From an uncultured Coprobacillus sp. (GTDB taxonomy: Bacteria > Bacillota_I > Bacilli_A > ML615J-28 > CAG-698), in the NCBI GenBank assembly GCA_964385755.1, contig CAYLPZ010000003.1, positions 65,052 through 129,051 on the forward strand: 64,000 bases of DNA, read 5' to 3'. The position numbers were made by a program, and so were the translations under genes. A model generated the notes under the pieces. That model was not told the DNA's origin. It saw nothing but the letters and a program-made list of their open reading frames with translations, and did not search any database. Shown here piece by piece: positions 11,127 to 38,057 of this stretch. The first letter of the stretch is position 1, and every line of letters begins with the position of its first letter.

Positions 11127-12308
11127 TTATAGTTCTTTGTATAAAGATAATGATCCATCAGCGTGGAATTCAAGAACTGGAGCACTCTTTTGTGGGTTGT
11201 TCTTTTCATCAAATGTTAATGCACCAGTACATCCTTCAAATGAAATACCTTTTAATGCGGCAACAACATCAGCATTATCAGTTGAATTTGCTTTTTCGAT
11301 TGCGGCAACTGCAAGATATAATGCATCATATGCTAAAGCTGCAAACATTGAAGGAACTTCTTCATGACCATTCTTATATAATTCTGTTCCAGCTCTATTA
11401 AATTCTGCTTTATAATCAGCATAGAATGATTTAACTTGTTCTTTTTCTGAACCAGAAAAAATACCAGTTACATAGAAGCAGTTTTCAAAATATTCAGGGT
11501 GTGCATAATTAGCAGTAGCACCATCCCATCCATCACCGCCAAAGAACATACAATCAACACCAGCTTCACGGCAAGCAGCAACAGCAGTTCTAATTTGATC
11601 AGTATAGTCAGGCATTACAATTGCATCTGGAGCAGCATTTTTAATTTCTGTAACAAATGAGCTCATAGAGTTCTTTAATGCATCTAAATTATCATAATTT
11701 AATAATTTTGCAACTTCAACTTTTCCTTCAACTTCACTAACAAATGCATCACAAATACCAGAAGAGTATGCGTCAGCAGTGTTCTTTAAAACAACAACTT
11801 TTTTAACGCCTTTATCTAAAGCAAGCTTAGAAAGAATTGTACCTTGATAAGAATCAATAAAGCAAGTACGGAATACAGATCCTTTTAATTTACCATCATC
11901 ATAAGTTACAACATCACCTGTTGCAGTTGGAGTGATCATTGGAACACCATCTTCAGCAGCTGCAGAAGAAACTGCTATAGTAGTATTAGTGATAACTGGT
12001 CCAACGATAATATCAACATCTTCAGCTATTGATTGATATTGGTTAACAGCTGTAGTAGGATCAGCTGTATCATCTTTTATAACTAATTCTATTTGTTTTT
12101 TAGCGCCATCAACATTAACACCACCAGCTTCATTGATTTGTTTAGTAGCTAGTTTAACACCATTAACTACTTCTTCAGCATAGAATTGTGCTGCAACACT
12201 TAAGTTACCGATAACACCTATTTTAACAGTATCATTTTCTTTTTCACCACAAGCAATTAGGCCAAATCCTAAAGCCAACATCATAACTACGAATAGAAAT
12301 TTTTTCAT
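11127..12308 (-). CDS. livJ: branched-chain amino acid ABC transporter substrate-binding lipoprotein (LivJ/LivK family)
   Basis: Lipoprotein signal MKKFLFVVMMLALGFGLIACGE with a periplasmic binding-protein type I fold, first gene of the liv cluster. The RBS AAAGGAGAAAAG lies upstream. Confidence 0.7.
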   Translation of the reverse strand: MKKFLFVVMMLALGFGLIACGEKENDTVKIGVIGNLSVAAQFYAEEVVNGVKLATKQINEAGGVNVDGAKKQIELVIKDDTADPTTAVNQYQSIAEDVDIIVGPVITNTTIAVSSAAAEDGVPMITPTATGDVVTYDDGKLKGSVFRTCFIDSYQGTILSKLALDKGVKKVVVLKNTADAYSSGICDAFVSEVEGKVEVAKLLNYDNLDALKNSMSSFVTEIKNAAPDAIVMPDYTDQIRTAVAACREAGVDCMFFGGDGWDGATANYAHPEYFENCFYVTGIFSGSEKEQVKSFYADYKAEFNRAGTELYKNGHEEVPSMFAALAYDALYLAVAAIEKANSTDNADVVAALKGISFEGCTGALTFDEKNNPQKSAPVLEFHADGSLSLYKEL

Positions 12309-22481: not shown

Positions 22482-22810
22482 ATATTCCACTCCTTTATTA
22501 AATTTTTTTATCATCAAAATAAATCCTTTTATGAAAAGCATCACTATTATAATAAACATATAATACATTATTATAGATAATATATGATTCTTCTAGCTAT
22601 TCATGTAAAATAATAAGATACACCATTATTTTTATATCTTTATTATTATTATATTATTTATTACTATTTTTTTCAAGAATCGTGACATATATACAAATTA
22701 AAAAGTGGTGAAACAATTTTATATACAAACGAAGCACTATCAACAGGCTTTAATATTTTTCTTAGTACTGGTGGGAATGCTAAAATTCAGTCGTATTACT
22801 GAGATGTTTC

Positions 22811-23161
22811 TTATTCCACCGTGTTAATAACCAAAAACGGCTTACGCCCGAATTTGTCCACAAGGGGACGGTAGAAAATAATAAGCAACGTTACCGGATA
22901 GGAAATAAAACCTATGGCGGAAAAGAGCGATAATCCCTCGCCGTATTCCATACCCATATTTTTTACGAAGAATTCCGTAACTATATTCGCCTGAAACTGA
23001 ATGGATATAGTAGACGCTATTTCGTCCGTTATGAAGATGAGCGACAAAATCATAAACAAGTAAGTCAGATAAAACTTGTTGCTTCTTGCGCCCAACTGTT
23101 TTTCGCGGCGGATAAGTTCTTTGGCTTCGCGCGCCTGTAATCGTTCAACGTTTTTTGCCAA
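22811..23161 (-). pseudogene. N-terminal fragment of an MFS transporter, truncated at island boundary
   Basis: The 116-aa ORF ends with PLVDKFGRKPFLV, the MFS loop 2-3 signature. The reading frame stops exactly at the left compositional boundary. Confidence 0.45.
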
Positions 23162-23199
23162 GCGGTAAGCTTTCTCCCGCTTTTTGCTTTTTGTTTATC

Positions 23200-24258
23200 T
23201 TATTTGTGGCGCATACGATACTCAAATTCATCAACGCGTTCTCCCGTCTTTTTCATTTCGTCGAGAGTTTTACGTTGGTTTTCAAGATTGCGTTCATTCT
23301 GCTTTGCAAGTTCTGCGTTGTGTGAAGCCTGTTGCTTTGCTCTGAACTCAGCATCCTCGTGCATTTTCTTTGTTGTCCTGTTAAGGTCGTCGAGCTTTTG
23401 GTTTATTGAATTGCGTGTTTCAATATTTATCATATTTTGAATGTTGATCTGCTGCTGTGTTTTGTCAGCTATTATACATTCCTTAGCTATAGAGTTGAAA
23501 TCATCCTCAGAGGTGGCTGTCATTCCAAGCTTTATAAAATAGTCTTGCTGATCGTAAGGAGTGTTTTCAAAAAGAAATAATACTCGCTCTCCAACTATAG
23601 CCTTTGCCTCCTCGGCGACATCACTAAGTGTGCTATCCCTTCTGACCTCGGCATCAGCATATGCTTTCTCGAATGTTAACAACAGCTCAGAAAAGTAATT
23701 CTTTGTAATGCTCTGTGCCTTGGAAACAAGCGCAGAAAGCACAGCTTCGTCAGGCTTGTTCTTCTTAATAGCTATAATAACGTCAAGAAGTCCCAAACCT
23801 ATTCCGACCATGGTGATCTTCGGCATCGAGAGTGCCAATCCGGTGAATAACGCAGACGCTGCCAAAAGACCGAGCATTAAAACGCCAAAAAGTTTAAGAA
23901 AGCTTCCTGTAAGAGGCTTATTTACGCCCTTTTTAAGCTCATCCCTTACATTGCTCTGAATTTCGAGCAATTTAGACTCATACGCCGATGTTTCAGCGCG
24001 CATTTGTTCTGTATATTTAATATTTAACAAATCACATCCGTACTTAACGTTATCGCCAAGGCGGGATGCTTTGCCATCGTATTGATCCAATAGATATCTT
24101 ATTTGCTCGACTATATTGCGGTCGTTAAGCCCATCTGCGATCGCGCGCTTGCTTTTTAGACTTTCGATATATTGATACGCCTTGGTAAAAGAGCGCTCTA
24201 TATTTTTTTTGTCCTCACGGTACTTAGTGAGGTACTGCATAGCTTTGGCATAATTCAT
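23200..24258 (-). CDS. hypothetical protein with central pair of TM helices and coiled-coil C-terminus (island cargo)
   Basis: 352-aa ORF. Hydrophobic stretches LKLFGVLMLGLLAASALFTGLAL and ITMVGIGLGLLDVIIAI. The C-terminus is Gln/Glu/Lys-rich. Confidence 0.4.
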   Translation of the reverse strand: MNYAKAMQYLTKYREDKKNIERSFTKAYQYIESLKSKRAIADGLNDRNIVEQIRYLLDQYDGKASRLGDNVKYGCDLLNIKYTEQMRAETSAYESKLLEIQSNVRDELKKGVNKPLTGSFLKLFGVLMLGLLAASALFTGLALSMPKITMVGIGLGLLDVIIAIKKNKPDEAVLSALVSKAQSITKNYFSELLLTFEKAYADAEVRRDSTLSDVAEEAKAIVGERVLFLFENTPYDQQDYFIKLGMTATSEDDFNSIAKECIIADKTQQQINIQNMINIETRNSINQKLDDLNRTTKKMHEDAEFRAKQQASHNAELAKQNERNLENQRKTLDEMKKTGERVDEFEYRMRHK

Positions 24259-24501
24259 TTTATTTTCCTCCGAGTAATATATAGTTGTACCATAAGCATA
24301 CCACGCCTTTTGATAAAATGCAATATGATATACGAATAAATATACTGAAAATTTTATTTTGTAAAGGTAAAATGCCCTATCAGTTGGATAAGTGAAAATA
24401 TAAGAAACAAAAAAAGCCCGAACCTTTTTCCAATGGTAAAAAAGTTCAAGCCATTTGCGTTTGGTGACCCTGTGCCCAAGAAAGTCTAACCTATAAAATG
24501 G

Positions 24502-25350
24502 TTAAATATAATAAATAGTCAAATAGTAGTTATGCCAAAGCCCAAAAGCAAATTCGGTATAAGTCGAAGATGAGGTATTACCTAAATTTATCTCACTCAA
24601 CGACGGGCGCGTCAAATAATAAGATGCTGAATTATAATTTTGAAATATGTGCCACATTACCACCAATTTGCCTTTTCCCGTAGCAACGTGAGCTTTATAT
24701 TGATAAGCCGCCAACTGATTTTCGGTTATGCCTGTTGTGTAATACCTTTCAGCAGAATTTTCGCTATCAAAAAGATAAAAATACTCGCAATCGACAAAAT
24801 CGGAACTCAATAAATTTAAAAGAGCAGTATTGTTGTCAACAGTAATTTTTTCTTCGCTGACACTTTCAATATCCGTAAGCTCGATAACCTTATAAATTAC
24901 GCCGACTTCGGTATCAAACGCCCCTTTCTCGGTAGCGATAGCGGTTATTTTTTCGTTAAGTTTAGCGTTTGTAGAAAGTACATAACGATTATTATCGACA
25001 TTTATTCCGTTCAATGAAATGCCGTAAGAGTTTGCGCCTTGTCGTATCGTAAACGAAGTGTTGTTGCCAGGCGCAGGCGGTTCATTACCTAAATTAGTAA
25101 GTTTGGCGGTAAGTACCAAATTAACTATTTCGTCTATATTGCTCTTATCTTCAATAGTAAACTGAAAGCCGTCCTTTTTTCCGTTATCGAAATCCACGTC
25201 TATTTTATCGCCACCCGAAAGCATATCCGAATAAAATTCAATATCGCTTATTGCGTTTATTTGATTAGCCTTATCGGTACAGCCAGCAAACGCAAATAAT
25301 GCTATACAAGTAATAGCCGATAATAAAAACGCTATAACAGTTTTTTTCAT
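24502..25350 (-). CDS. lipoprotein of unknown function (island cargo)
   Basis: Signal plus lipobox (ALFAFAGCTDK). No recognisable domain. Confidence 0.4.
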   Translation of the reverse strand: MKKTVIAFLLSAITCIALFAFAGCTDKANQINAISDIEFYSDMLSGGDKIDVDFDNGKKDGFQFTIEDKSNIDEIVNLVLTAKLTNLGNEPPAPGNNTSFTIRQGANSYGISLNGINVDNNRYVLSTNAKLNEKITAIATEKGAFDTEVGVIYKVIELTDIESVSEEKITVDNNTALLNLLSSDFVDCEYFYLFDSENSAERYYTTGITENQLAAYQYKAHVATGKGKLVVMWHIFQNYNSASYYLTRPSLSEINLGNTSSSTYTEFAFGLWHNYYLTIYYI

Positions 25351-25365
25351 ATCATTACACCCTTA

Positions 25366-25402
25366 TTTAATTTTTCACTATTATATCTTTTTCACTATTA
25401 TA
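25366..25402. repeat. two tandem 17-bp direct repeats TTTTTCACTATTATATC (iteron-like)
   Basis: Exact repeat copies at 25366-25382 and 25386-25402. They sit in the intergenic region next to the origin-like hairpins and the Rep gene. Confidence 0.45.
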
Positions 25403-25470
25403 TCATACGCAAGTCTTTTTAGCAATAGCTTAAGTGGGATAAACACTTATTAAAATTAAAAGGGCAGTTA

Positions 25471-25525
25471 TGCGTGAGCTTGTCTTGACGAGCGCGCGAC
25501 TACGCCGCGCGGACAAGCTCACGCA
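25471..25525. promoter_or_regulatory. GC-rich nested stem-loop (14-bp perfect stem TGCGTGAGCTTGTC / GACAAGCTCACGCA enclosing a CGCGCG...CGCGCG sub-hairpin): candidate rolling-circle origin
   Basis: Read directly. A second nested hairpin AAGGGCG...CGCCCTT lies at ~25576-25616. The Rep gene is ~750 bp downstream. Confidence 0.4.
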
Positions 25526-25780
25526 ACAAAATAAATAAATCGACTAAATAAACGTATTTGAAAGCCGAGCGGAAGGGCGTTCGCCGCTGAACCGCTTGGC
25601 GATTCGCCCTTTCCTCTCGCTCTGCGGTGATTTCAAATAATATCGTTTTATTACAGCCGATTTGCTTTTCTTTTTGTTGGCGGTGGGGCTTTTCCGCTTA
25701 ATCGTCGCAGAGATTAACCCTAATTCCGCTCGCTTTGTTCATAACTGAAAAATTTTTTTAAAAAATATACAAACATTTGT

Positions 25781-25809
25781 TTGACTTTTAAAATTGTTGG
25801 TTATATAAT
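25781..25809 (+). promoter_or_regulatory. strong sigma-A-type promoter (-35 TTGACT, 17 nt, -10 TATAAT)
   Basis: TTGACT at 25781-25786 and TATAAT at 25804-25809. Confidence 0.5.
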
Positions 25810-25815
25810 AATCAA

Positions 25816-26104
25816 ACGCACAAAAAAGTGCGAGTGCAATTTAATATTGGAACTGCGTCAATAGGAAATCTATTGTGCAGCTAAAACAGCAGACCAGAGG
25901 TTAAGTTAAGGAGCAAAGTAGCGATTAAGCGAAAGCCGGTTCACCCCCAACAAAGAAAAGGTGCAGAGTTGCGTTTTGATAAGAGAGAAGATAGCACACT
26001 CTTATTCTATTAAGGGAATATAATATTCTCTTAATTTTAACGGGCGATGTACAAAGTTTTATGAGATTAAGTTCTCGTAAGATTTTGTACATCGCCCTTT
26101 TTTC
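25816..26104 (+). ncRNA. candidate ~290-nt non-coding RNA bounded by promoter and a strong intrinsic terminator
   Basis: No convincing ORF. The terminator at the end is GGGCGATGTACAAA-n28-TTTGTACATCGCCC followed by a T-run, and it sits upstream of the Rep gene. Confidence 0.3.
26042..26104 (+). terminator. intrinsic terminator (14-bp stem, long loop, T-run CTTTTTTCG)
   Basis: Read directly from the sequence. Confidence 0.55.
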
Positions 26105-26280
26105 GTGCAAATTTTCGAAACGGAGGACAGAAATTTGCAGGAAAACAAGACAAAAAAAGACATTGAGGTCAGGAGTATCGGAAAGCCGAACATTTCGGCA
26201 TTATCCGAGAGTGAACAGGCGGTATTCTACGCCACCCTATTAAAGCGAATAACGGAGCTTGTAAAAGGGGGTGATAGAAA

Positions 26281-27165
26281 ATGAACTTAATCGGCGCAAA
26301 GGTTTACTTTGACGGCAGACATTGGATAGCTATTCGCCATACCGAACGAAGTTCCAAACGGCGAAGAAAGAGCATTAAGGCGCAGGACGACCCCACGGTT
26401 GAACAGTTTGAAAAGTCGTTTAACAAGACAACAAAGGGTAGAAATTCGAAGAAAAAAGAAAGCCTTTTGAAAGAGTTTTTACCCCACTTTGACAGCGAAA
26501 GCGAAGCTACGGAATTTGTAGAAACGCAGTTTGAACGGCTTAACCGCAACCGCATTGAAAGATTTAAAAGGTTAAAGCGAAAGGCGTATTTACAGCAATG
26601 GCACTACTTTTGCACTTTTACCTATGCGGACGGCAAGCAGACCGAAGAGAGTTTCAGAAAGCAGTTAATGAACTGTTTATACCATTTGGCTACACGAAAG
26701 GGTTGGAGATATATCGGAGCTTGGGAACGTGGTGAAGATAACGGAAGATTACACTTTCACGCTTTGGTCTATATACCGCCCGACGGTATGGTTGGAGAGT
26801 TTGAAGAACGTAACGATTTCAGCTTTAAAGCTCATAAACGGCAGGTTACTAATCAAAATACGTTTTTCAACGAGCGGTTTGGGCGTAACGATTTCGACAA
26901 GATTTCACATCAAATCGAAGTCGAGAACAGCGTTTACTATATGCTCAAATACATAACCAAGAATGACGAAAAGGTCGTTTATTCAAGGGGGTTAAAGAGC
27001 TATATCGTAGCGGACATTTTGGAAGAAGATATACTCTGCCCTTATGGTGATGACGAGAATGAATACAAATTTATACTTTCAGACGATTTCACCTGCATTA
27101 CGGACGGCGAGATTTTGGGAAAGGTCAGTCCCGAAGTCATAGAAAAAATGCCGAAAAGTAACTGA
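26281..27165 (+). CDS. rep: rolling-circle replication initiator (HUH endonuclease superfamily Rep)
   Basis: Motif I FCTFTYAD, motif II HFHALVY (HUH) and motif III VYYMLKYITKN (YxxKYxxK, the two-tyrosine type seen in phiX174 gpA-like and plasmid Reps). The basic N-terminal region is preceded by RBS AAAGGGGGTG. Confidence 0.6.
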   Translation: MNLIGAKVYFDGRHWIAIRHTERSSKRRRKSIKAQDDPTVEQFEKSFNKTTKGRNSKKKESLLKEFLPHFDSESEATEFVETQFERLNRNRIERFKRLKRKAYLQQWHYFCTFTYADGKQTEESFRKQLMNCLYHLATRKGWRYIGAWERGEDNGRLHFHALVYIPPDGMVGEFEERNDFSFKAHKRQVTNQNTFFNERFGRNDFDKISHQIEVENSVYYMLKYITKNDEKVVYSRGLKSYIVADILEEDILCPYGDDENEYKFILSDDFTCITDGEILGKVSPEVIEKMPKSN

Positions 27166-27364
27166 CCAAGAGTTTTTGTCTATCGACTTGCAGAGCGTAA
27201 ACGAAAACCCACGCTGTTGCAAGGGTAAAATGCACTACTTTCGTAGCCCTTGCATCAGCGCAGGAATAAGCCATAAAAAACGCTAAACAATGGCTTTCCG
27301 TTTGTTCGCCCCTTGTCGAAAGACAAAAGTTAAAAATCTATTTTAAAAGGAGTTTAAATTAAGA

Positions 27365-28846
27365 ATGAAAAAAGCAGTTATATATGCAAGATACTCTTGC
27401 GATAAGCAAACCGAACAATCAATCGAGGGTCAGTTGAGAGTTTGTCAGGAATATGCCAAAAGGAATGATATTCTAATTCTTAACACCTACATTGACCAAG
27501 CTATGTCAGGTACGAATGACAATCGTCCTGATTTTAAGAAAATGATTAAAGACAGCGCAAAGCGTGAATGGGATTTCGTACTCGTTTACAAACTTGATAG
27601 GTTTTCAAGAAATAAGTACGAAGCTACAATTCACAAGAAAACGTTAAGAGATAACGGTGTTAAGGTTATATCCGCTATGGAGAACATACCAGACACCCCC
27701 GAAGGAATTATCCTTGAAAGCCTACTTGAAGGAATGAACCAATACTATTCCGCAGAGCTTTCTCAAAAGGTTAAGCGTGGTATGAAAGAAACAAGATTAA
27801 AAGGTTATTACCAAGGCGGTGGCGTTCCGTATGGATATAAAATAGACGGACGAAAGGTTGTAATTGACGAAGAAAGAGCCGAAGTTGTCAGATATATGTA
27901 CGACGAATTTTCAAAGGGCGTAATCGTCAAAGATATTGTTAAGGCTTTGACCGATATGGGTAAGACCTACCGTGGTAAGCCGTTTGCGATGAACACAGTT
28001 TACGGAATACTGCGCAACGAAAAGTACATAGGAGTTTATAGAATTAACGACGAAGTTATAACCAATATGTACCCCAAGATAGTTGACGAACCTATTTTCA
28101 ACCGAGTAATAGCCATATTAGAACGTAATAAACGTGGTAGTCGCAGTCAAGAAACCAATTACCTATTAAAGCACAAATTAAAGTGCGGTTATTGCGGTAA
28201 CAATATCAACGGTGAATATGCTAAATCTCATACAGGAGCGAGCTTTTACTACTATAAATGCCGTGGTCGTAAATCGAAGTTAGCGGACTGTAAAAAAGGT
28301 ACTATTCAAAAGGATTGCCTTGAAAATCTTGTAATCGGTAACACCATAAAAGAGTTAAGCGACCCTATGAATATGCAGACGATTATTAACGGTATTCTTG
28401 AAATGCAAAGGCGAAACCTAAAAGAAAATTCCAAGTTAGCAGAGCTTAAAAGGGAACAGCGAGAGATTGAGATTGCCATTGACAACACTATGAAAGCGAT
28501 AGCACAAGGAGTTATTACAAAATCTACGGGGCAGTACCTTAAAACCTATGAAGAAAGGCAAGAAGAAATTATTAAGCAGATTGCCATTGAGCAGAGTAAG
28601 GAAACGGTTTTATTGACCGAAAAGGAAATTAGAAAGTTTTATGAAGATGCTTTAAAACTTGAACCTCAAATGCTTATAAATTACCTTGTAAAAGAGATAG
28701 TGTTATACGATAACCGAGCAGACATTATCTACACAAGTCCATTAAAATCTACGGATAGTCCTGACGATAGTCAGGGCTTTTCTTTTTACTCTAAAACGGT
28801 TAGAATTAAGAATAGGTACTTTATTATAACGCTGTATATCAAATGA
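27365..28846 (+). CDS. large serine recombinase (resolvase catalytic domain + recombinase domain + zinc ribbon)
   Basis: The N-terminus AVIYARYSCDKQTEQSIEGQ carries the catalytic Ser. VYKLDRFSRN, the recombinase domain GVPYGYKIDGRKVV and the zinc ribbon CGYCGNNING...YYYKCRGRK are present. RBS AAAGGAG. Confidence 0.8.
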   Translation: MKKAVIYARYSCDKQTEQSIEGQLRVCQEYAKRNDILILNTYIDQAMSGTNDNRPDFKKMIKDSAKREWDFVLVYKLDRFSRNKYEATIHKKTLRDNGVKVISAMENIPDTPEGIILESLLEGMNQYYSAELSQKVKRGMKETRLKGYYQGGGVPYGYKIDGRKVVIDEERAEVVRYMYDEFSKGVIVKDIVKALTDMGKTYRGKPFAMNTVYGILRNEKYIGVYRINDEVITNMYPKIVDEPIFNRVIAILERNKRGSRSQETNYLLKHKLKCGYCGNNINGEYAKSHTGASFYYYKCRGRKSKLADCKKGTIQKDCLENLVIGNTIKELSDPMNMQTIINGILEMQRRNLKENSKLAELKREQREIEIAIDNTMKAIAQGVITKSTGQYLKTYEERQEEIIKQIAIEQSKETVLLTEKEIRKFYEDALKLEPQMLINYLVKEIVLYDNRADIIYTSPLKSTDSPDDSQGFSFYSKTVRIKNRYFIITLYIK

Positions 28847-28925
28847 TATACGGCAATTTATTCCACAGTGCTATTGACAAGAGCCTCCAAGGCGTGTGGT
28901 ATTCAGGCAAAGAGCCAAATACCCA

Positions 28926-28950
28926 AGCCCTTGGGGGCTTTTGATTTGCC
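28926..28950 (+). terminator. intrinsic terminator after recombinase gene (AAGCCC-ttgg-GGGCTT + TTTGATTT)
   Basis: Read directly. It is embedded in a larger imperfect inverted repeat. Confidence 0.45.
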
Positions 28951-29397
28951 GTTGGCTGATAGCCTACCACACGCCATTCTCTTATCAATAGCCTTTTGCG
29001 GCATAAAGTGCCGTAAATAGCAAGCCAAATATAAGCGTTTTAAGGCTTGATTTTTCAGGTTGAAGAAATATTGCAAGACATAAAGAAAAGCCGTACAGAG
29101 CTATTCTGCGCGAATTAAAGGAGCGAAAAACAAAAGCCGAACCTCTCATTTGTGAAAAGTTCGACTTTGTTAAGTGTTGGTGACCCGTACGGGAATCGAG
29201 ACGGTGAGCAATAAAAAAGAAGGATACCTTCGGACTGTTTAATTAGGGATTTTCTAAAAACAGTCTAAAAGTCGGCTCAGAACAAAAAAACCACATCCAA
29301 GAGTTTATAAGCTCAAGGGGGTGGCTTTTTGTTGCTCAAATAAGCAATAGATACAATTAATAGTTTAAAATATTAGTGTAAAATTGCTTAATTTGAG

Positions 29398-29601
29398 GTG
29401 AAAATTATGATTTATGGGTACACAAGAGTAAGTACTAGAAAACAAGTTGACGGTTACGGGTTAGAGGTACAAAAAAATGAAATTTTGAGCAAATATCCTA
29501 CTGCCACCATAATTGATGAACAATACACGGGTACTAAATTAGATAGACCCGTTTTTAACGCACTTTTAGAAGGCTTGCAGAAGATTATATTGATTATATG
29601 A
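29398..29601 (+). pseudogene. N-terminal 60-aa fragment of a small serine recombinase (resolvase/invertase), truncated
   Basis: MIYGYTRVSTRKQ...GLEVQKNEI...RPVFNALLEGLQK is the catalytic-Ser motif of resolvases. The frame then ends after IILII, where the 120-aa remainder is missing. Low-GC DNA. RBS GAGGTG. Confidence 0.5.
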
Positions 29602-29903: not shown

Positions 29904-31832
29904 TTATTTAATATTAGTCATTCGTTCAATTGTTTTACATTTACCTTCTTCTAATCTTTCTTGGTTTGACAAAATGTAAGTATTACCTTTTGTTCTTGTG
30001 ATTGCAGTATAAACAATCTCACGTGTAAGAAGTGGATGACCTTTCTTTTTTGGCAGAATAACTAAAATATTTTTAAAATCTGATCCTTGTGATTTATGAA
30101 TTGAAATAGTATACGCTAATGTAATTTCATCAGATGCAAATAATCTAACAGGATAGAATAAATATTCTCCTAATTTAAAAATCTTATTTTCTCTCTTTCC
30201 ATCTTCAGTATAAAACTTTGAAGTCTTCTTTAGCATTAAGTATAAAGTATCATCTTCTGCGAAAGAAACAATTATTCCTGTATCTCCATTATATACTTCT
30301 AATGTAGTGTTGTTTTTAGTGATCATAATAATCATTCCTGGGTAATAACCATTATATTCACTCTTGTAAGTCTTATCTATTACTAAATTTTTAACTAGTT
30401 CATTGATTTTAATATTCCCTCTTAATCCTTCGTTCTCAGCAGTTAAGATTCTTGACAGTTCAATTTCACTTTCTAATGTCTTAAGTACATCTAAATCATA
30501 CTCGCTTAGATTACTAGCTTTTCCTTGTAGATTCTTATAAAAATGTTTAGCCCAAACACCTACTACTTTCTTTATGATTTCTTCTTCAGAGGCTTTTTCA
30601 TCATTATCTAAGTAATAATATATAGGTTTTGTAACAAAGTTATCTTCCTCTATTTTAAAAGAATCATAGTTCTTCCATTCACTACTTGAAACTGGCAACT
30701 CTTGATTATTATTAATTGCGTTTGCTAGAGCGTATATTTTAGTTTTATCTGAAAATCTAATCGATACATCTAAGGCAACTATATTATCTTTTAGTGTATC
30801 CATTTTTAATAAATCACCAAAAACGGCACCACAATCAACTGATGGAAGTTGATTCTTATCACCCATGATAAAAAGTTTTGCATTAGTAGGAATAGCTTCT
30901 AAAAGAGATGAGAATATATTTATATCAATCATACTTGCTTCATCGATAATAAAAATCGAATTTTCATCAAATTGATTACTTCGATTTTTCGAAAAAGTAT
31001 TTGTCATACTACTATACGCAAGTAAGCGATGAATAGTTGCTTCATTTGATTTCTTTATTTTCTCTATAATATCATTATTGTTTAAAATAAACTCTTCTTT
31101 TAATCTACTTATTCCACCCAAAATGCTTTCTTTCATTCGTCCTGAAGCTTTTCCACTTGGAGCGGCTAAATATATTTCATATTCACTATTCTGTAGTAAT
31201 AAACTAATTAATAAAAATAAAATTGATGTGGTTTTACCAGTACCTGGTCCACCAGTAATAATTAAATTTTTATTAATACCTTCTTCTATTGCTTTTTTCT
31301 GTCCGAAAGATAAATTAAAACTAGATTTGTTTTCTAACCAATTTTCATATGATTCACAAGTGAAAGTTGTATTTGTAGTTTTAAACAACCTTCTAATGTC
31401 ATATTCAATTGATGTTTTTGCTTCATAATATTTTCTTGTATAGATGTAATCATCTTTTATAACAAATAAACCATATTCACCAAATATGCTTGAATTTTTT
31501 TTATCATTTAATAAGTTTAATGCTTTTTTTACAAATTCACATGCATTATCATAAATCACATCATACTCTAAAATATTATACTTTGGATTATCACCATATA
31601 ATACCTTTCTTCCCTGGCACTTTACCAAAAATCTATTTAAGATACCATTCTCATCAAGTAACATACATGTATTTCCATCATCAATAAATGAAAAATATAA
31701 AAGTAGAAAGCATAAAACATCATCTTCACTGATATCTAAAGAAAGCATTTGACAAACTTTTTGCCAGATAGGACTTAACAAATCATTTTTTACAAGTAAA
31801 TTACAAAATTCTTGATAATTCATAAAATCCAT
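29904..31832 (-). CDS. recD: exodeoxyribonuclease V alpha subunit (RecD, SF1 helicase)
   Basis: IITGGPGTGKTT...LAAPSGKAS...ATIHRLL...FIIDEASMIDI...LFIMGDKNQLPSVDCGAVFGDL tracks E. coli RecD motif by motif. Confidence 0.75.
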   Translation of the reverse strand: MDFMNYQEFCNLLVKNDLLSPIWQKVCQMLSLDISEDDVLCFLLLYFSFIDDGNTCMLLDENGILNRFLVKCQGRKVLYGDNPKYNILEYDVIYDNACEFVKKALNLLNDKKNSSIFGEYGLFVIKDDYIYTRKYYEAKTSIEYDIRRLFKTTNTTFTCESYENWLENKSSFNLSFGQKKAIEEGINKNLIITGGPGTGKTTSILFLLISLLLQNSEYEIYLAAPSGKASGRMKESILGGISRLKEEFILNNNDIIEKIKKSNEATIHRLLAYSSMTNTFSKNRSNQFDENSIFIIDEASMIDINIFSSLLEAIPTNAKLFIMGDKNQLPSVDCGAVFGDLLKMDTLKDNIVALDVSIRFSDKTKIYALANAINNNQELPVSSSEWKNYDSFKIEEDNFVTKPIYYYLDNDEKASEEEIIKKVVGVWAKHFYKNLQGKASNLSEYDLDVLKTLESEIELSRILTAENEGLRGNIKINELVKNLVIDKTYKSEYNGYYPGMIIMITKNNTTLEVYNGDTGIIVSFAEDDTLYLMLKKTSKFYTEDGKRENKIFKLGEYLFYPVRLFASDEITLAYTISIHKSQGSDFKNILVILPKKKGHPLLTREIVYTAITRTKGNTYILSNQERLEEGKCKTIERMTNIK

Positions 31833-31837
31833 CCTCC

Positions 31838-34800
31838 TTAATACATTTTGTCTTTAACGATCTTTTGATATGCATTTTGTAATTCATTATATGACTTCCA
31901 TGTTTGTGCATATACTCCATTTCCACTATCTTTGTTACATCCACGCAAAAATACATAATATATACCACCAAAGTGGTTATCAAATATCTCTTCTTCTGTT
32001 TCATTATTGTAAATATTCTTAAGCCATTTTATAAGAGTATATGAATATAATACTCTTTGGATTGAATAACAATTATCAACATGTTTTTTGATATCTTTAT
32101 TATTATAGCTTAATAAATCTGAATCATTTAATATATCTGATTTCCAGTCAAGTACAGAATAATACTGTCCACGCTTAAACACTAAATCGATAAAACCATT
32201 ACAATAGTTTCGTAAACTATATAAGTCATTATTAAATATAAATTCCATTTCAGCTTTGTAATCCTTTGTTGGTAGCGAATTTAGTTTTATATTCCCTTCA
32301 ACTTTGTTAGCACCATGGATTATCGGAAGTTTTGAAGAAAGAACTTCTCTTACTATTCTTTTAGAATCCTCAATCCATTCCTCTTTTGTTTCAATTCCTT
32401 CTTCGTTAAATGACGAGATAATAATTTCTTTTAAAGCATCATCATCTATATTATCAAAATCATATCTTTCAAAGATGCTGTGTAAAGCTGTCCCAATTTT
32501 ATTTCCCTTAGGAAAGTCTTTACTTAAACTAATGCATTCTTCATTTGTAAAATCACTCTCCACAAACAAAGCATTTTGATCATACATCGAAATTGCATCT
32601 TTTATTTCAATTCCTTCTTTATCAACATTTTTATTATCATCAACGATTATGTCATCTTCAAAATCACTTCTTTCATTACTATGTGAAAGTGAAGTATAAG
32701 AATGTTTAAAAATCAATTTACCAAACTTATCTCTTATAAGTGTTTTTAATATCGCATCTTGTTCTTCTTTGCTATCAATAATATCGTTTTCTGCTATTTT
32801 ATTTTCTTTCTCTAAATTTATAGATAGAATTTTCTTAACATCCTCTGTTCTAGAAGATTTATTGCTAGATTTAATAACATTAACTAATCGATAGTTGTTA
32901 CTATCACTTTCGATTAATTCATTTGTAGTATTTGCGATAAATGAAAATGGCTCTTTTAATGGTCTATAAAACGGAATAAACAATAAATATTCTGCTCTTG
33001 TATAATCAACATAGAATATGTTTTTCCATTCTAAGGCGTTCTCAATTAAATATTTTTCTTTATTTGAAGAAATAACAGGTTTTTCATCTTCATGAATCAA
33101 GTTATAAGAAGAATCGATTGGACCCTTTTCACCACCCATTGAAATTACAATTGGAAATTGTAGTCCCTTTGATGCATGAATTGTCATAATTTTTACCGCA
33201 TCAAAATCAGTACCTTTTTCTATTATTCCACAGTTTTCATTATCATTTGTTGATTTATTTGTAAAGCTTTTTAAATGATGAATTAAATCAACTAAATCAT
33301 GATCATTAGATAAATATTCGCATGAGTATCTACATAATTGTTTTATCTTTGACAATGATTGAATATTATCAGGCCCACTAAGTGTATATAATACTTTAGA
33401 ATCATTAATAATAGAGTCAATAAGGTTTTCCCACTTTTTGCTTCTTGCAAGTTCCTGCCATTCTAGTATTATTTCCATTTCCTCAGTATCATTGCGTTCA
33501 TATTTTTCTAAATTGAGTTCTCTTATACTTTTATTAAAAAAGCATGTGAAAAGAGCTTTTTTAAATGCTTTTCGATTATACTGCGTAAAATCATCCTTAA
33601 CTAATGCTTCAAAAATAGCAATTAAGTGTGCACATTCTTTGTCTGTAAAAAGTGACTCATCTTTATTACGAATACAAGGAATTCCATTTTTTCTAAGTTC
33701 CTTTTCAATAGAAAACATCTCACTTCTTGTTTTCGCAAGTACACAAATATCTTTAAATGACACATTTCTTTTCTTTTTTACTATTATGTCATTTACTTTT
33801 TCATTATAGAAAAGTTGTAACCTTGTGTTTCCTTTTTCATCATACGAACACATATCTATTAAATAGTTTGCAACAGTTTTACTATAGCTATATGGTTCAC
33901 AATATTTATTTTCTTCATCATAAACAACCCATATTGGTTCTATTTCTTTTCCATCAAAACAGGCCATTAAACTTTTTTGATCATTTACTTGTGGTGCTTT
34001 TGACTTTATAAAAGTATCACCAAAAAAACTTTTTGCTTTGCATAAATCATTACAACCTGCGATCATTTGTGGTGTTGAACGATAGTTAACATCAAGTAAC
34101 TCTCGTTTAGCCCCATAATCTTTTAAATATTTTATTGCATCGATATATGCATGTAAATCTGCTCCTTGAAATGAATAAATTGATTGCTTTGGATCTCCAA
34201 CAACAATTATATGATGATTTTCATCTTCTAAAAATATCTTCTTAAAAATATCCCATTGTTTTTGATTTGTGTCTTGAAATTCATCAATAATTGCTAAAGA
34301 GTATCTGTCTTTTATTTTTTGCTTCAAAGGACCATCACTACATATTTCTTCACGAACATATGCTATCATATCATTAAATGATTGCAATTTTCTTTTCTTC
34401 TTTTCTTCTTGCCAACTTATATATAAATCATCTATATATGTTAAAATTAATAATTTAACTATTGTTTGATTAAAAGTTTTTTTATCAAAATAATCTTTAT
34501 ATGTTTTTATTTTCGAAAACATTTCTTTTTCATAGTCACTAAATTTTTTAATTGTATTGTTATTAAACTTATGACCATTAAAGCTAATTACCCTCTTTTC
34601 ATCAAATTCTTCTTTTATGTTTACTAATAATTTATTCAAATTAGGATAATTGTTATCTGATAATACATCATATATTTCTTTAAACCTTTTGTTTTTAGAA
34701 ATAAATTCATCAAGATTATTAGAATCAATCATATCAATAATAAAATCTAAATCAACATCATTCAATATACTTTTATCAATTGATACGATTTCTTTACGTT

Positions 34801-35242
34801 CTTTGTAATCTTTATCTAAATAATATAGATTAACTACTGTTTTTAGATTTCTCTTTAACGTATCTATATTGATATCATATTCATAAAACTTTTCAATATA
34901 GTTAAATATCTTTGTATCTCTAATATATGACTCCAAAAAATTATCAAATTCCACACCACTAGTCACATCTAAGCTCATTGGTTGGTTAGAGGCAATAGCA
35001 TACTCATAAAGCATTCTTTGACAAAAAGCATGAAATGTATAGATTTCACTATTTTTATCTGACTTTATTGATCTACGGACGCGAGCTTTAAGCTCTCCCA
35101 CTGCTTTTTCTGTGTAAGTTAATATCAGTATTTTATCTAAGCTTATTTCTTCTGTGAAAACTTCTAACATTTTGATAATGTTATAAGTCTTACCAGTCCC
35201 AGCAGAGGCTTCAATATAATAATTATCTATCTTGTTTATCAT
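31838..35242 (-). CDS. recB: exodeoxyribonuclease V beta subunit (RecB, UvrD-like helicase + RecB-family nuclease)
   Basis: The N-terminal IEASAGTGKTYNI matches RecB LIEASAGTGKTFTI. UvrD-family helicase motifs are present. The C-terminal nuclease motif GFIDLVFKRGQYYSVLDWKSD fits GxID...D-YK. The stop overlaps the recD start and the start overlaps the recC stop. Confidence 0.75.
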   Translation of the reverse strand: MINKIDNYYIEASAGTGKTYNIIKMLEVFTEEISLDKILILTYTEKAVGELKARVRRSIKSDKNSEIYTFHAFCQRMLYEYAIASNQPMSLDVTSGVEFDNFLESYIRDTKIFNYIEKFYEYDINIDTLKRNLKTVVNLYYLDKDYKERKEIVSIDKSILNDVDLDFIIDMIDSNNLDEFISKNKRFKEIYDVLSDNNYPNLNKLLVNIKEEFDEKRVISFNGHKFNNNTIKKFSDYEKEMFSKIKTYKDYFDKKTFNQTIVKLLILTYIDDLYISWQEEKKKRKLQSFNDMIAYVREEICSDGPLKQKIKDRYSLAIIDEFQDTNQKQWDIFKKIFLEDENHHIIVVGDPKQSIYSFQGADLHAYIDAIKYLKDYGAKRELLDVNYRSTPQMIAGCNDLCKAKSFFGDTFIKSKAPQVNDQKSLMACFDGKEIEPIWVVYDEENKYCEPYSYSKTVANYLIDMCSYDEKGNTRLQLFYNEKVNDIIVKKKRNVSFKDICVLAKTRSEMFSIEKELRKNGIPCIRNKDESLFTDKECAHLIAIFEALVKDDFTQYNRKAFKKALFTCFFNKSIRELNLEKYERNDTEEMEIILEWQELARSKKWENLIDSIINDSKVLYTLSGPDNIQSLSKIKQLCRYSCEYLSNDHDLVDLIHHLKSFTNKSTNDNENCGIIEKGTDFDAVKIMTIHASKGLQFPIVISMGGEKGPIDSSYNLIHEDEKPVISSNKEKYLIENALEWKNIFYVDYTRAEYLLFIPFYRPLKEPFSFIANTTNELIESDSNNYRLVNVIKSSNKSSRTEDVKKILSINLEKENKIAENDIIDSKEEQDAILKTLIRDKFGKLIFKHSYTSLSHSNERSDFEDDIIVDDNKNVDKEGIEIKDAISMYDQNALFVESDFTNEECISLSKDFPKGNKIGTALHSIFERYDFDNIDDDALKEIIISSFNEEGIETKEEWIEDSKRIVREVLSSKLPIIHGANKVEGNIKLNSLPTKDYKAEMEFIFNNDLYSLRNYCNGFIDLVFKRGQYYSVLDWKSDILNDSDLLSYNNKDIKKHVDNCYSIQRVLYSYTLIKWLKNIYNNETEEEIFDNHFGGIYYVFLRGCNKDSGNGVYAQTWKSYNELQNAYQKIVKDKMY

Positions 35243-38057
35243 CTAAAACCTCCAAGAATTTCATCAAACTTTTTTGCCTTTCCCTAATCTCTTTCCATAG
35301 ATTTAAGTAATTACTTTCGTTATAACCTAAATCTTTGTAAAAATCAATCATATCTCTATGTTCAAAGTATTTCCAAGCGCTACTATTTTGTATGTTATAT
35401 ATAAAATCTTTATATTTATCATAGTTTGCATTACCTTTTACCATGCTAAATGGAGCAGAATAGATATTATCAAAGTCATAATAAGCAAAATAAATATTAT
35501 TTAAATAATGTTTTGCTTCTTTCTTTGTTAAAGTGTAATCACATTTTTCTCTTCCATTAATAAAAATATTATATTCTTTATCTTCATAAACATCTGATGC
35601 AACGTCAACAAGTGAAATAAGATATAACCTAATCTCATTTACACTATTATCATTGATAAGAGCATATTTTATATCATTTCCACTTGTAACTTTTACAAAT
35701 TCTTTATCATATTCAATTGTCCACTTTAATATACTTTGATTATCAATGATAAGGTCTATTTCTAGATCATTTAAATTTGTTACAACTAAAGATTGTCCAT
35801 ACTTACTTATAATATCATCTTTTATTTTTATAGCCTTTTCTTTTTCTTTTTGAAATTCAATTTCACCTATTTTACCAGAGTGTAAAGTGTAATCCATTGT
35901 ATTTAATTCTTTATTACTATTAAAAACATCTGATGGGTTTTCATTTTTAAGAAGACTAGTTGCTATTTTATTATAAATGTTAAATTGTTGTAGATTATCA
36001 AGACTAAATGGTTCATATTCACACTTTATTTTTTCAAAATAATCATCTGTTTTTTCAAATAAACGTTTTAAGTGGTGAACAAATGGATCTTTTAAGAACT
36101 CTTCAAGGTCCTTTAATTTCATTTTTTTACTTTGTTCAAGTAAGGCTCCTTCATCTTCTATTCTAATATTATCTTCATCTTCCTCTAATAGTTTTGTGTA
36201 GTAACCTTTATTCATATACTCAAGCTTTGTATATAATGTTCCCCATTTTCTATCCTCATCAAGTTTATACGTTGTAATGTTGTTACTTGTAATATAATTT
36301 GATACAGCTTCGGAAGGAAAATATTCCTCTAATGTCGTTAAATTAACATTAACATAACTAATAAACACTTCTTTAGCGTTTGATATAAGTTTATTAACTA
36401 TTGTACATCCATCTTTGATAGAAGTATCTTCTTTAATATTCAAAAAAAGTTCTGATCTACTTTTCTTGCTTGGATAGTTTTTTGAACTCATCCCTAGCAT
36501 AAAAATATATTTTGAAGTGTAGTTTGCATCATCATTCAAATTAGTGAATGTAACTCCACTAGTAAACATAGTCCCCTTTTGCATTATTGATTTTGAAGTT
36601 GCATCTAAAATAGCATAAATGAATGTCTTAACTAGCACTTTACTTGTGTGCGAATATTTCCATTTGTTTATTTCTTTAAGCAAATTTTTGTAAAATACAT
36701 TTTCTAAACTACTTTGATTATTTGTAACAAATAACCATTTGTTCATCTCTTCAATAAAAGCATCAAAATACTCAGAAGTCAAAATATCTTTATTTAAGTT
36801 TTTTATTAGTGATGATAAATCATCAATAAGATCAATAAATTTAACAATAACATCATCTGAAAGACTAATATTTGAAAATGGCAAGTAATAATGATTATCT
36901 ATTATTCCTTTATTTTCTACAGTTATATTATTATTAATTAATTTAGATAATAGCATTCTTTTCTTAGCATATTCAAAATCTAATTTTTCTTCATGATTGC
37001 GATATGCATTCATATTAACTAAACATTGCATAAGGACTAATGCATCATCACTAGTTATGTCCCTTGCCTTTTGTATTAATTTATTTGATAATAATTCATA
37101 GATATCATATCGAGTATATGTTTTTCTAGTAATAATATCCATTAGCCTTGAAAGAGCATTAATAAAGGAGCTATCTTCTTTTTTCATATCTAAGATATTA
37201 TATGGTATTTTTGGATAATTCTTATCGTCTTGATTAAAAACTCGATTAATTGTTGACTGATAATTTGTGATATTTGGTGCTAAAACCAAGAAATCACTAT
37301 ACTTAACATTCTTTTCTCTAAGTAGAGAGCAAATGTGTGAATGCATTACTTCAACTTCCCTAAGTATAGAAGGGCAAGAACTAAATGTTATCTTTGCTTC
37401 TGTTTTTTCACTCTCTTTAGTCTCATATACTTTAATATTATTTGAGATACTTAGTTTATTAATAATCTCTTTTGATAATTTATCTAGTTTTGAAAAACCA
37501 AATATATAAACTGGATTATCATTTGGAATAATATTACTATCTTCAAATAAATTCCTAAGAGTTGTTAATCCATTATTTTGTAAATATTCTATTGATTTTC
37601 GGTATAAAATATTTTGAAATGAATCGCTAACATCATAAAGTTCACTTTCATATTCATTGAACACTTCAACCATCTTTGTGATATAATCATAAAACTTTAT
37701 TGGATGGTATTTATCTTTATCATATATATACCTTTTTATATTATCTGGCATTAAAGAAGTTACTAAAGGATCTTCTAAAACCTTTGCAATAGCAACGCGA
37801 AAATCACTGTTATTAGCAAGACGATACCTATTTTCATTAGATAATTGTTCGAGAAAAAAAGGTTTTAATCTTTTAAATGATACGTTCATTAATATGCCAT
37901 TATCATCATTAAGCCATAAATATTTAAGTTGCTCTTCAATCTTTAAATTTGGAGTAATAATAATAGGAGTTATATAAAAATTCATTTTATTTTTTAATTC
38001 ATTAAAAAGATTATTTGCAAGATTTTTAATTAATTCATCATTCTTATATTCTAACAT
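35223..38057 (-). CDS. recC: exodeoxyribonuclease V gamma subunit (RecC-like)
   Basis: A 944-aa protein lacking a Walker A, sitting first in a recC-recB-recD order and translationally coupled to recB. The N-terminal region has RecC-like pattern similarity. The call rests mainly on synteny. Confidence 0.55.
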   Translation of the reverse strand: MLEYKNDELIKNLANNLFNELKNKMNFYITPIIITPNLKIEEQLKYLWLNDDNGILMNVSFKRLKPFFLEQLSNENRYRLANNSDFRVAIAKVLEDPLVTSLMPDNIKRYIYDKDKYHPIKFYDYITKMVEVFNEYESELYDVSDSFQNILYRKSIEYLQNNGLTTLRNLFEDSNIIPNDNPVYIFGFSKLDKLSKEIINKLSISNNIKVYETKESEKTEAKITFSSCPSILREVEVMHSHICSLLREKNVKYSDFLVLAPNITNYQSTINRVFNQDDKNYPKIPYNILDMKKEDSSFINALSRLMDIITRKTYTRYDIYELLSNKLIQKARDITSDDALVLMQCLVNMNAYRNHEEKLDFEYAKKRMLLSKLINNNITVENKGIIDNHYYLPFSNISLSDDVIVKFIDLIDDLSSLIKNLNKDILTSEYFDAFIEEMNKWLFVTNNQSSLENVFYKNLLKEINKWKYSHTSKVLVKTFIYAILDATSKSIMQKGTMFTSGVTFTNLNDDANYTSKYIFMLGMSSKNYPSKKSRSELFLNIKEDTSIKDGCTIVNKLISNAKEVFISYVNVNLTTLEEYFPSEAVSNYITSNNITTYKLDEDRKWGTLYTKLEYMNKGYYTKLLEEDEDNIRIEDEGALLEQSKKMKLKDLEEFLKDPFVHHLKRLFEKTDDYFEKIKCEYEPFSLDNLQQFNIYNKIATSLLKNENPSDVFNSNKELNTMDYTLHSGKIGEIEFQKEKEKAIKIKDDIISKYGQSLVVTNLNDLEIDLIIDNQSILKWTIEYDKEFVKVTSGNDIKYALINDNSVNEIRLYLISLVDVASDVYEDKEYNIFINGREKCDYTLTKKEAKHYLNNIYFAYYDFDNIYSAPFSMVKGNANYDKYKDFIYNIQNSSAWKYFEHRDMIDFYKDLGYNESNYLNLWKEIRERQKSLMKFLEVLDDKQDR

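Follow-up and report, generated by a model that had tools for sequence, protein, structure and literature searches.

We analysed a 64-kb stretch of contig CAYLPZ010000003.1 from an uncultured Coprobacillus sp. (64,000 nt, hereafter the window). A gap of 750-930 nt, free of long open reading frames (ORFs), holds the features examined here. To its left lies a lipoprotein-like gene. To its right, on the plus strand, follow a small ORF, a gene for a replication initiator (Rep) of the HUH endonuclease type and a large serine recombinase gene. The gap carries two hairpins, A and B. As judged from their alignments, they are a conserved, covarying DNA module travelling with a rolling-circle rep gene in small integrating elements of gut Clostridia. 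In our assessment, the two hairpins probably act in cis as the origin module of a small integrative replicon of the rolling-circle type. The principal features are:

25471-25525, strand unassigned: hairpin A, with 50 distinct variants in other loci
25554-25640, strand unassigned: hairpin B, a long imperfect hairpin with 47 distinct variants
26281-27165, plus strand: Rep, a two-tyrosine HUH endonuclease (PF23343, REP_ORF2-G2P; 48.4 bits against a cut-off of 27.8)
27365-28846, plus strand: large serine recombinase with Resolvase, Recombinase and Zn_ribbon_recom domains
24502-25350, minus strand: lipoprotein-like gene, the left neighbour, divergent from the element

The original prediction, made from the window alone, had placed an origin-like architecture of tandem repeats and nested hairpins upstream of rep. 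Rep does lie downstream, as the PF23343 ORF listed above, and both hairpins are present. The 14-bp perfect-stem hairpin with its CGCGCG sub-hairpin is hairpin A, with refined coordinates. Its outer stem pairs TGCGTGAGCTTGTC (25471-25484) with GACAAGCTCACGCA (25512-25525), and its inner stem pairs CGCGCG (25493-25498) with CGCGCG (25506-25511) below an apical loop ACTACGC (25499-25505). The 5' side has an internal bulge, TTGACGAG (25485-25492). Three GACAAGC-type boxes are found in hairpin A, one inverted and two direct. No other inverted repeat in the window that reaches 14 nt, with a limit of 60 nt on spacing, is 100% complementary; the rest are AT-rich and imperfect. The second nested hairpin that had been described (AAGGGCG..CGCCCTT) is present as hairpin B. 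At its base, ATTTGAAA pairs with TTTCAAAT (about 25556-25638). Its apex consists of AAGGGCGTTCGCC (25573-25585), a 12-nt loop GCTGAACCGCTT (25586-25597) and GGCGATTCGCCCTT (25598-25611).

Folding of positions 25440-25740 with DNA parameters gave -66 and -68 kcal/mol for the two strands, compared with -43 ± 4 kcal/mol for shuffled sequences (z = -5.65; none of 100 shuffles was as good). The region is thus far more stable than its shuffles.

Seventy loci were compared in all, with contexts for four proteins. Thirteen of them came from species-representative genomes ("Christensenella", "Coproplasma" and Clostridia metagenome-assembled genomes), 39 were metagenome loci found by the hairpin A pattern, and three were viral-contig loci (L067-L069) found by the hairpin B apex. 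As controls for pairing, the arms were slid out of register or the alignments were shuffled.

In hairpin A, the outer stem GCGTGAGCTTGTC...GACAAGCTCACGC was nearly invariant in sequence across the 50 variants and covaried at two pairs (G-C to T-A and A-T to T-A). The sequence of the GC-rich inner stem drifted with pairing kept, three of its five pairs being compensatory, so that five pairs in total showed compensatory changes. Paired cells amounted to 98%, compared with 91% in shuffled and 21-50% in slid alignments. The 5' bulge kept the form T(T)GA..AC(A/G)AG, appearing as TCTTGAC(A/G)AG in the window lineage and as TCATAGAC or TCTATGAC in others. The apical loop varied among homologues (C-T-N-C-G).

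In hairpin B, 10 of the 12 apex pairs had changed on both sides, and 95.5% of the cells were paired (82% shuffled, 46-52% slid). The lower stem was lineage-specific yet paired, with GCCGAGCG facing CGCTCGGC in one lineage and GCCCGCCGCG facing CGCGGCGGGC in another. The 12-nt loop was invariant across variants (GCT[GA]A[ACT]CCGCTT), and a single unpaired T on the 3' arm of the apex kept its position. None of 500 shuffles reached the observed values. Sequence comparison thus established selection for base pairing with invariant unpaired motifs, together with the linkage to the Rep family and the limits of the element treated below. The invariant motifs (the GCTTGTC/GACAAGC boxes and the loop of B) imply putative sequence-specific recognition.

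Linkage of the hairpins to a Rep family

All Rep loci with enough upstream DNA (L002-L020, L022, L024-L026) carried hairpin A followed by hairpin B. Hairpin A was located 640-940 nt upstream of rep in the Rep-homologous loci, and most hairpin-pattern metagenome loci that reached far enough had rep ~640-710 nt downstream. Homologous elements lacking the hairpins would have spoken against the prediction; instead, every informative Rep locus among the 70 had both, kept with rep and covarying, down to 41% Rep identity.

The most distant clade (L067, L068 and L069) has Reps 41-51% identical to that of the window, on contigs classed as viral. Both hairpins were kept, as modules at 1590-1800 of L067, 400-620 of L068 and near 4890-5020 of L069 (minus strand). 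Here, the A-B module follows the stop codon of rep at a distance of ~70 nt and is oriented convergently to the gene. Compensatory changes were seen in the outer stem of A (GCGTGTGC... with ...GCACACGC), and its bulge reads TCTTGATAC in L068 and L069. Because the hairpins persist with compensatory changes and the module is flipped relative to rep in this clade, they point to a cis-acting DNA site and not to an mRNA leader.

The same hairpins and rep occurred alongside different integrases: a 493-aa serine recombinase, a DUF4368 serine recombinase and a tyrosine integrase. The tyrosine integrase variant sits at a tRNA-Leu gene (L003-L007), and in the DUF4368 variant the element is inserted in the rep of a resident element (L008-L013). 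Hairpin A therefore tracks Rep, not the integrase.

The Rep motifs are H158-F-H160 and Y220-M-L-K-Y224, with HFH and YxxKY invariant in 20 homologues. By its sequence pattern, Y220-x-x-K-Y224 places the two tyrosines as in initiators of the phiX174 gpA type, and Rep also matched Phage_GPA weakly. A structure model had the HUH fold, with the Helraiser transposase as the second-best structural match. Sequence and profile searches of the PDB and a search of the NCBIfam models gave no match for Rep. The phage collection yielded one, MT835493 (39% identity), in which the region upstream has no comparable hairpins; its Rep is of a different subfamily and uninformative. Relatives of Rep formed 3,572 database clusters, nearly all unnamed and largely from metagenome or sequencing-run assemblies of gut and other origin. 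The three with a source name are called Clostridia. The 754-nt spacer had no blastn match in the plasmid and phage collections.

Transcribed features and the 17-nt repeat

Further features of the gap and its surroundings are:

25673-25700, plus strand: conserved non-coding block TTGTTGGCGGTGGGGCTTTTCCGCTT, 3' of hairpin B (alignment of 13 loci), partly kept in the L003 and L008 lineages
25781-25809, plus strand: promoter TTGACT-17-TATAAT (11/12 matches), which would drive leader RNA, small ORF and rep; kept in most window-type loci
25816-26106, plus strand: structured leader RNA of ~290 nt, closing in a long intrinsic terminator (stem 26039-26100 and T run)
26135-26284, plus strand: small ORF of 49 aa from TTG, or 59 aa if from GTG at 26105, overlapping the start of rep
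25371-25387 and 25388-25404, minus strand (as promoter): exact 17-nt tandem duplication TTTTTCACTATTATATC, outside the element

The small ORF is kept in window-type loci and had no family match. The leader RNA segment is conserved in 15 loci, more strongly than the coding sequence, with many G-U pairs on the plus strand; it had no match in Rfam. It might control rep as an attenuator or leader, or be a small RNA in its own right.

The hairpins themselves could also work as RNA, for instance as a terminator or as part of a small or antisense RNA. RNA folding of the region is just as good, and a genuine structured RNA of the element lies directly downstream. Against this, no Rfam family matched in the window at the gathering score, and only chance-level matches appeared at E up to 5. 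There is no conserved promoter upstream, since the flank is different in every locus, and the orientation of the module relative to rep is not fixed. The rep promoter lies downstream of the hairpins. A T run follows neither hairpin, and hairpin A was rejected as a terminator on this ground. In the outer stem of A, no G-T pair occurred in 25 aligned variants and one among all variants seen (L068); a stem nearly without G-T, beside a leader RNA rich in G-U, argues for DNA and not RNA. We regard the RNA explanation as extremely unlikely.

The tandem 17-nt copies exist as the original prediction had described them. Their proposed role as iterons, that is, Rep-binding sites, was rejected. They lie 55-90 nt outside the homology block common to related elements, whose start is at about 25455-25463, no homologous locus has them, and they coincide with a -10 box. 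On the minus strand, the repeat reads GATATAATAGTGAAAAA, with TATAAT copies at 25402-25397 and 25385-25380. A promoter scan found TTGCTA-17-TATAAT (10/12 with TG) at 25425-25397, directed at gene 24502-25350. Near copies of the 17-mer occur at, or just upstream of, several other minus-strand gene starts in the window. By its sequence, the repeat is best described as a duplicated -10 box in the promoter or 5' untranslated region of gene 24502-25350. Exact tandem repeats beside rep thus need not be iterons, a lesson for annotation. Of the origin-like architecture, the hairpins, conserved with a rolling-circle Rep, stood, and the iterons did not.

Two sister lineages, those of L003 (7636-7838) and L008 (7682-7889), do have genuine iteron-like direct repeats in the segment from hairpin B to rep, as three copies of about 24 nt ending in AATGTGGGGT and two copies of 37 nt containing GTACTGAAAGA. 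In the window lineage, the promoter and leader RNA occupy this position.

Limits of the element and its integration site

The element spans ~3.75 kb (about 25462-29180) and comprises hairpins A and B, the promoter and leader RNA, the ~50-aa ORF, Rep, the recombinase and a tail. Its ends are marked by the following features, with a slash for junctions:

25462-25470, plus strand: left edge of the block, GG/GCAGTTAT (TGG/CAGTTAG in relatives), the inferred left junction and conserved 5' flank of hairpin A
28847-29180, plus strand: conserved non-coding tail ending in ...GTTCGACTTTGTTAAGTGTTGG, the inferred right end of the element (P arm of the attachment site attP), with homology to L002, L016, L018 and L019
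29178-29199, minus strand: 22-nt fragment of a tRNA-Glu 3' end, TGGTGACCCGTACGGGAATCGA, adjoining the element

Homology of the window with more than 20 loci begins at 25447-25463; in the four loci long enough to include the right end, it stops at 29183-29199. The left flank differs in every lineage, up to ...TGG/CAGTTAG and hairpin A. At the right end, the shared ...GTTCGACTTTGTTAC.TGTTGG adjoins TGACCC... (junction TTGG/TGACCC), which is the 3' end of a minus-strand tRNA-Glu gene in six loci and of a tRNA-Ala gene in one. TGG is shared by both junctions, which fits a serine-recombinase crossover at the CCA end. The loci L017 and L020 are ~90% identical from -18 to +3760 of hairpin A and have unrelated left flanks; because they share the block inside unrelated flanks, the mobile unit is the ~3.75-kb block. 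The predicted junction of the excised circle is ...GACTTTGTTAAGTGTTGG/GCAGTTATGCGTGAGC. With its own serine recombinase, a Rep related to rolling-circle replication (RCR) initiators, and relatives at the CCA end of tRNA-Glu or tRNA-Ala, the element has the make-up of an integrative and mobilizable element (IME). No gene for a coupling protein or a type IV secretion system was found in the 3.75-kb block.

No complete tRNA gene was found in the window and no further tRNA-Glu 3' fragment left of hairpin A. An inverted, P'-like copy of the right-end sequence farther to the left would have put the left end of the element beyond the upstream genes; the search for one gave chance-level matches only. 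The tail (28847-29177, 330 nt) is shared among elements and has no convincing ORF; it could hold an attP arm, a directionality-factor site or another RNA. After the tRNA-Glu fragment, at 29398-29601, there is a truncated 67-aa N-terminal piece resembling small serine recombinases (MIYGYTRVSTRKQ...), as judged from its sequence. The fragment and the truncated recombinase suggest possible older integration and decay events at this site.

Hairpin A begins ~10 bp from the left end of the element, 9-12 bp from the inferred crossover TGG. Instead of an origin, it might be a site of recombination, or one with an accessory role in the integrase system, belonging to attP or binding a directionality factor. 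At this distance from the crossover, the P' half-site must overlap the 5' arm of A. Two further observations are in keeping with such a role. L043 resembles an L027-type element that has been circularly permuted, with the break falling between -46 and -8 of hairpin A. In L015 and L017 (hairpin A at 3064 and 3170), the left flank and A are 99.5% identical, compared with 85% from +90 onward. Breakpoints seem, from such pairs, to cluster at the edges of hairpin A, which may act as a breakpoint for element replacement. However, A is intact in all integrated copies and so is not itself the crossover site; as an attP core it was rejected, the inferred crossover lying 9-12 bp farther left. Three integrase types that are unrelated to one another occur with the same sequence, and the distant clade has it beside the rep stop codon. 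Covariation of the inner stem would have no role in a double-stranded half-site. An integrase site in place of an origin is therefore very unlikely in our view.

Alternatively, Rep and hairpin A could form the end of a rolling-circle transposon (IS91/ISCR or Helitron-like) that nicks at TGG/CAG and mobilises or captures the DNA to its left. The two tyrosines of Rep and the structural match to the Helraiser transposase agree with this. So do the homology, whose end falls at the same point to within a few bases even where the integrases differ or are placed far away, and the left-hand DNA, which is variable and compositionally foreign. Yet a dedicated integrase is found in every complete element, the serine-recombinase lineage sits exactly at tRNA CCA ends as site-specific integration predicts, and the pattern of L017 and L020 (-18 to +3760) is in keeping with a cut-and-paste unit of 3.8 kb. 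A second end of the ter type was not found. We hold the transposon end to be highly improbable.

The surroundings appear mosaic. At 22800-25450, three minus-strand genes (116 aa, 352 aa and the 282-aa lipoprotein-like product) had no family match, and the GC content is 35-45%, compared with ~27-30% for the host DNA around them. The left flanks in other hosts are richer in AT than the chromosome. As the composition of the left flank departs from that of the host, the neighbourhood is a mosaic of foreign DNA. The higher-GC genes (22811-25350) either belong to the element as cargo or form an island next to it; pairs such as L017 and L020 speak for the 3.75-kb unit. Immediately right of the island, at 29904-38057 (minus strand), there are three genes of 642, 1134 and 944 aa, the first two of which are a RecD-like and a UvrD/AddA-like helicase by Pfam scan. 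An AddB gene is found near the L002 copy. Going by this gene content, the island may adjoin the same repair locus in different hosts.

Nested and repeated insertions were seen elsewhere. In L010 (1-12354), a 10.4-kb element with its own hairpins, rep, LytTR two-component system, GH3 glycosidase and DUF4368 serine recombinase lies inside the rep of a resident window-type element. The insertion point equals window positions 26614-26625, and L013 has the same right-hand junction. In L008, L009, L011 and L012, a rep fragment comes directly after the DUF4368 recombinase. In L003 (11014-11350), the 5' half of the tRNA-Leu next to the tyrosine integrase variant is partially repeated three times after the gene (starts at 11152, 11244 and 11338); the repeats look like scars of repeated integration.

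The hairpins as a proposed origin module

HUH Reps nick single-stranded DNA (ssDNA) presented by hairpins, and RCR replicons bear a separate structured single-strand origin (sso), as described in two reviews (PMC5714925, PMC5703833). On this model, hairpin A would be the Rep recognition and nick region, that is, the double-strand origin (dso) and potentially the origin of transfer (oriT), and hairpin B would prime complementary-strand synthesis. The recombinase would excise the element as a circle, in which the tail joins hairpin A. Rep would then recognise A through the nearly invariant outer stem and the GACAAGC boxes and nick a conserved unpaired stretch, either the 5' bulge of A (TCTTGACRAG; TCTTGATAC in distant relatives) or the 12-nt loop of B. 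Rolling-circle synthesis would displace a single strand, on which B would fold and act as a single-strand (lagging-strand) origin. The same sites might serve as oriT if a conjugative element mobilised the circle. Where the nick falls, which strand carries it and how A and B share the work are all inferred.

The apical loop of A is not a conserved nick site, because it varies among homologues. When the loops were compared with known nick-site nonamers, as the original prediction had proposed, none matched. Candidate nick positions, chosen by conservation, are thus the A bulge (25485-25492) and the B loop (25586-25597). The origin sequence of pC194 contains CTTGATA (PMC7072734). The A bulge of the distant clade, TCTTGATAC, has this CTTGATA core, and Rep shares with the phiX174 gpA/pC194 group the YxxKY two-tyrosine motif and the weak Phage_GPA match. 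In pC194 and phiX174, the nick falls between G and A (CTTG/ATA). Unlike in those systems, the motif is degenerate in other lineages and lies within the internal bulge of a GC-rich hairpin. CTTGATAC was found only in distant relatives, and the sole CTTGATA of the element is at 27593, within the recombinase gene.

Hairpin B agrees in shape with the long imperfect hairpins of sso (about 100-160 nt for the ssoA type). The RSB sequence of ssoA is TTATGCCGAGAAAATTT; the lower arm reads AAGCCGAGCGGAAG in the window and ACGCCGAGCGGAAA in other window-type loci, sharing with RSB the 6-mer GCCGAG and a few neighbouring bases. A sister lineage has no GCCGAG (GCCCGCCGCG).

Several observations weigh against an origin module. 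None of the known nick motifs (CRESS/geminivirus NANTATTAC, pMV158 TACTACGAC and pC194/phiX174 CTTGATA) occurs at a conserved unpaired position; the hairpin A loop, GACTACGCC, agrees with that of pMV158 at 7/9 positions and varies among homologues. CS-6 of ssoA (TAGCGT) is found neither in the B loop nor in its complement AAGCGGTTCAGC, and the RSB-like GCCGAG is confined to one lineage. A nick on the plus strand at A would put B just downstream; in classical plasmids, the sso lies upstream of the dso. DNA-parameter energies for 50 A and 47 B variants, computed for both strands, showed no bias as to the folding strand, and a slight excess of G-T over A-C wobbles in B gives a weak hint for the plus strand. 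The Rep family had no match among 72,556 plasmid records, and a terminal-overlap test over all fetched loci revealed no free circular form. Part of the conservation of A could belong to attP, because the crossover is only ~10 bp away. Moreover, A and B occur without rep within reach in L029 and L041 (which adjoins ylxM-ffh), and A alone without rep in L042/L057, L044, L048, L056 and L059. The module can therefore persist, or act, without a Rep in cis. Such copies may be remnants, or sites mobilisable in trans. One of them sits beside ylxM-ffh-rpsP, another between restriction-like genes and Ku.

The rep-less modules, L029 and the one beside ylxM-ffh in L041, also bear on the possibility that both hairpins are only a single-strand initiation signal (an sso, an ssi or an ssDNA promoter used by host RNA polymerase or primase), with the dso elsewhere, for example at 25673-25700 or within rep. 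The minus-strand origin of filamentous phages, with its two hairpins, would be a parallel. In size and shape, hairpin B is like an sso, it carries the RSB-like GCCGAG, its loop contains CTG or CTA, which are known primase start trinucleotides, and the sequence invariance could reflect a conserved host factor. On the other hand, the module was found solely with this Rep family, down to 41% identity, and in none of the loci examined did it stand beside a replicon of another type. B lacks CS-6, no -10 element is positioned to fit the TTGACA of the bulge, and hairpin A also stands alone. We consider a pure single-strand signal unlikely.

A bolder version of the origin module is that hairpin A is dual-purpose. 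In this case, attP would overlap the Rep recognition hairpin, only the excised circle would present a complete, firing origin, and A would be a universal breakpoint at which cargo and integrase modules are swapped. We rate this as quite unlikely. If true, it would be an undescribed recombination and capture engine of gut Clostridia, between an integrative plasmid and an IS91/Helitron-like transposon.

The origin module has counterparts in several known systems. RCR plasmids (dso with bind and nic loci in pMV158 and pT181; sso of the ssoA and ssoU types) likewise have an invariant inverted repeat beside a long imperfect hairpin with a conserved loop, near rep; in the window, an RSB-like GCCGAG lies in the 5' lower arm of B. 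They differ in that CS-6 is missing here, the A loop matches TACTACGAC of pMV158 at only 7/9 positions and is variable, and the sso would fall downstream of the nick if the plus strand were nicked. The Pfam family of Rep includes gpII (G2P) of the filamentous phages f1/M13, whose intergenic region is a compact non-coding origin with adjacent hairpins, the minus-strand origin and the gpII nick hairpin. Unlike there, the element has no phage structural genes and no sequence similarity to these phages, and the hairpin A pattern had no match in IMG/VR. The pSAM2-type elements of actinomycetes, which are integrated rolling-circle plasmids, are a comparable system. We know of no origin or oriT defined for the element group of Christensenellales-like Clostridia.

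Firmicutes IMEs are also close in layout; they combine an integrase with a relaxase that is akin to the initiators of rolling-circle replication (Rep_trans/MobT, Rep_2, PHA00330, Viral_Rep) (PMC5704250). Common to both are the integrase with an RCR-type HUH initiator and integration at tRNA 3' ends, and replication of the excised circle has been proposed for maintenance or transfer (PMC5704250). In contrast, the Rep described here belongs to PF23343, with no NCBIfam or plasmid match, the element is a minimal 3.75 kb with no coupling protein or cargo in the conserved block, and its hosts are Christensenellales-like gut Clostridia. The class (an integrase and an RCR initiator at a tRNA gene) and the logic of a hairpin dso with a structured sso are already known (PMC5704250, PMC5703833, PMC5714925). 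New are the very common uncharacterised Rep family, the delimited two-hairpin module and the minimal 3.75-kb integrating replicon.

This Rep family is very common; none of its members has been characterised, it has no relative on plasmids, and no origin had been defined for it. The comparative data give an exact, testable definition of its cis module, namely two hairpins with their invariant motifs and a few positions as candidates for the nick. A minimal integrating replicon of Christensenellales-like gut Clostridia, which are hard to manipulate, is defined as well, and it could seed vectors or integration tools for these bacteria. Such a definition would further aid the annotation of thousands of "hypothetical" islands beside tRNA genes.

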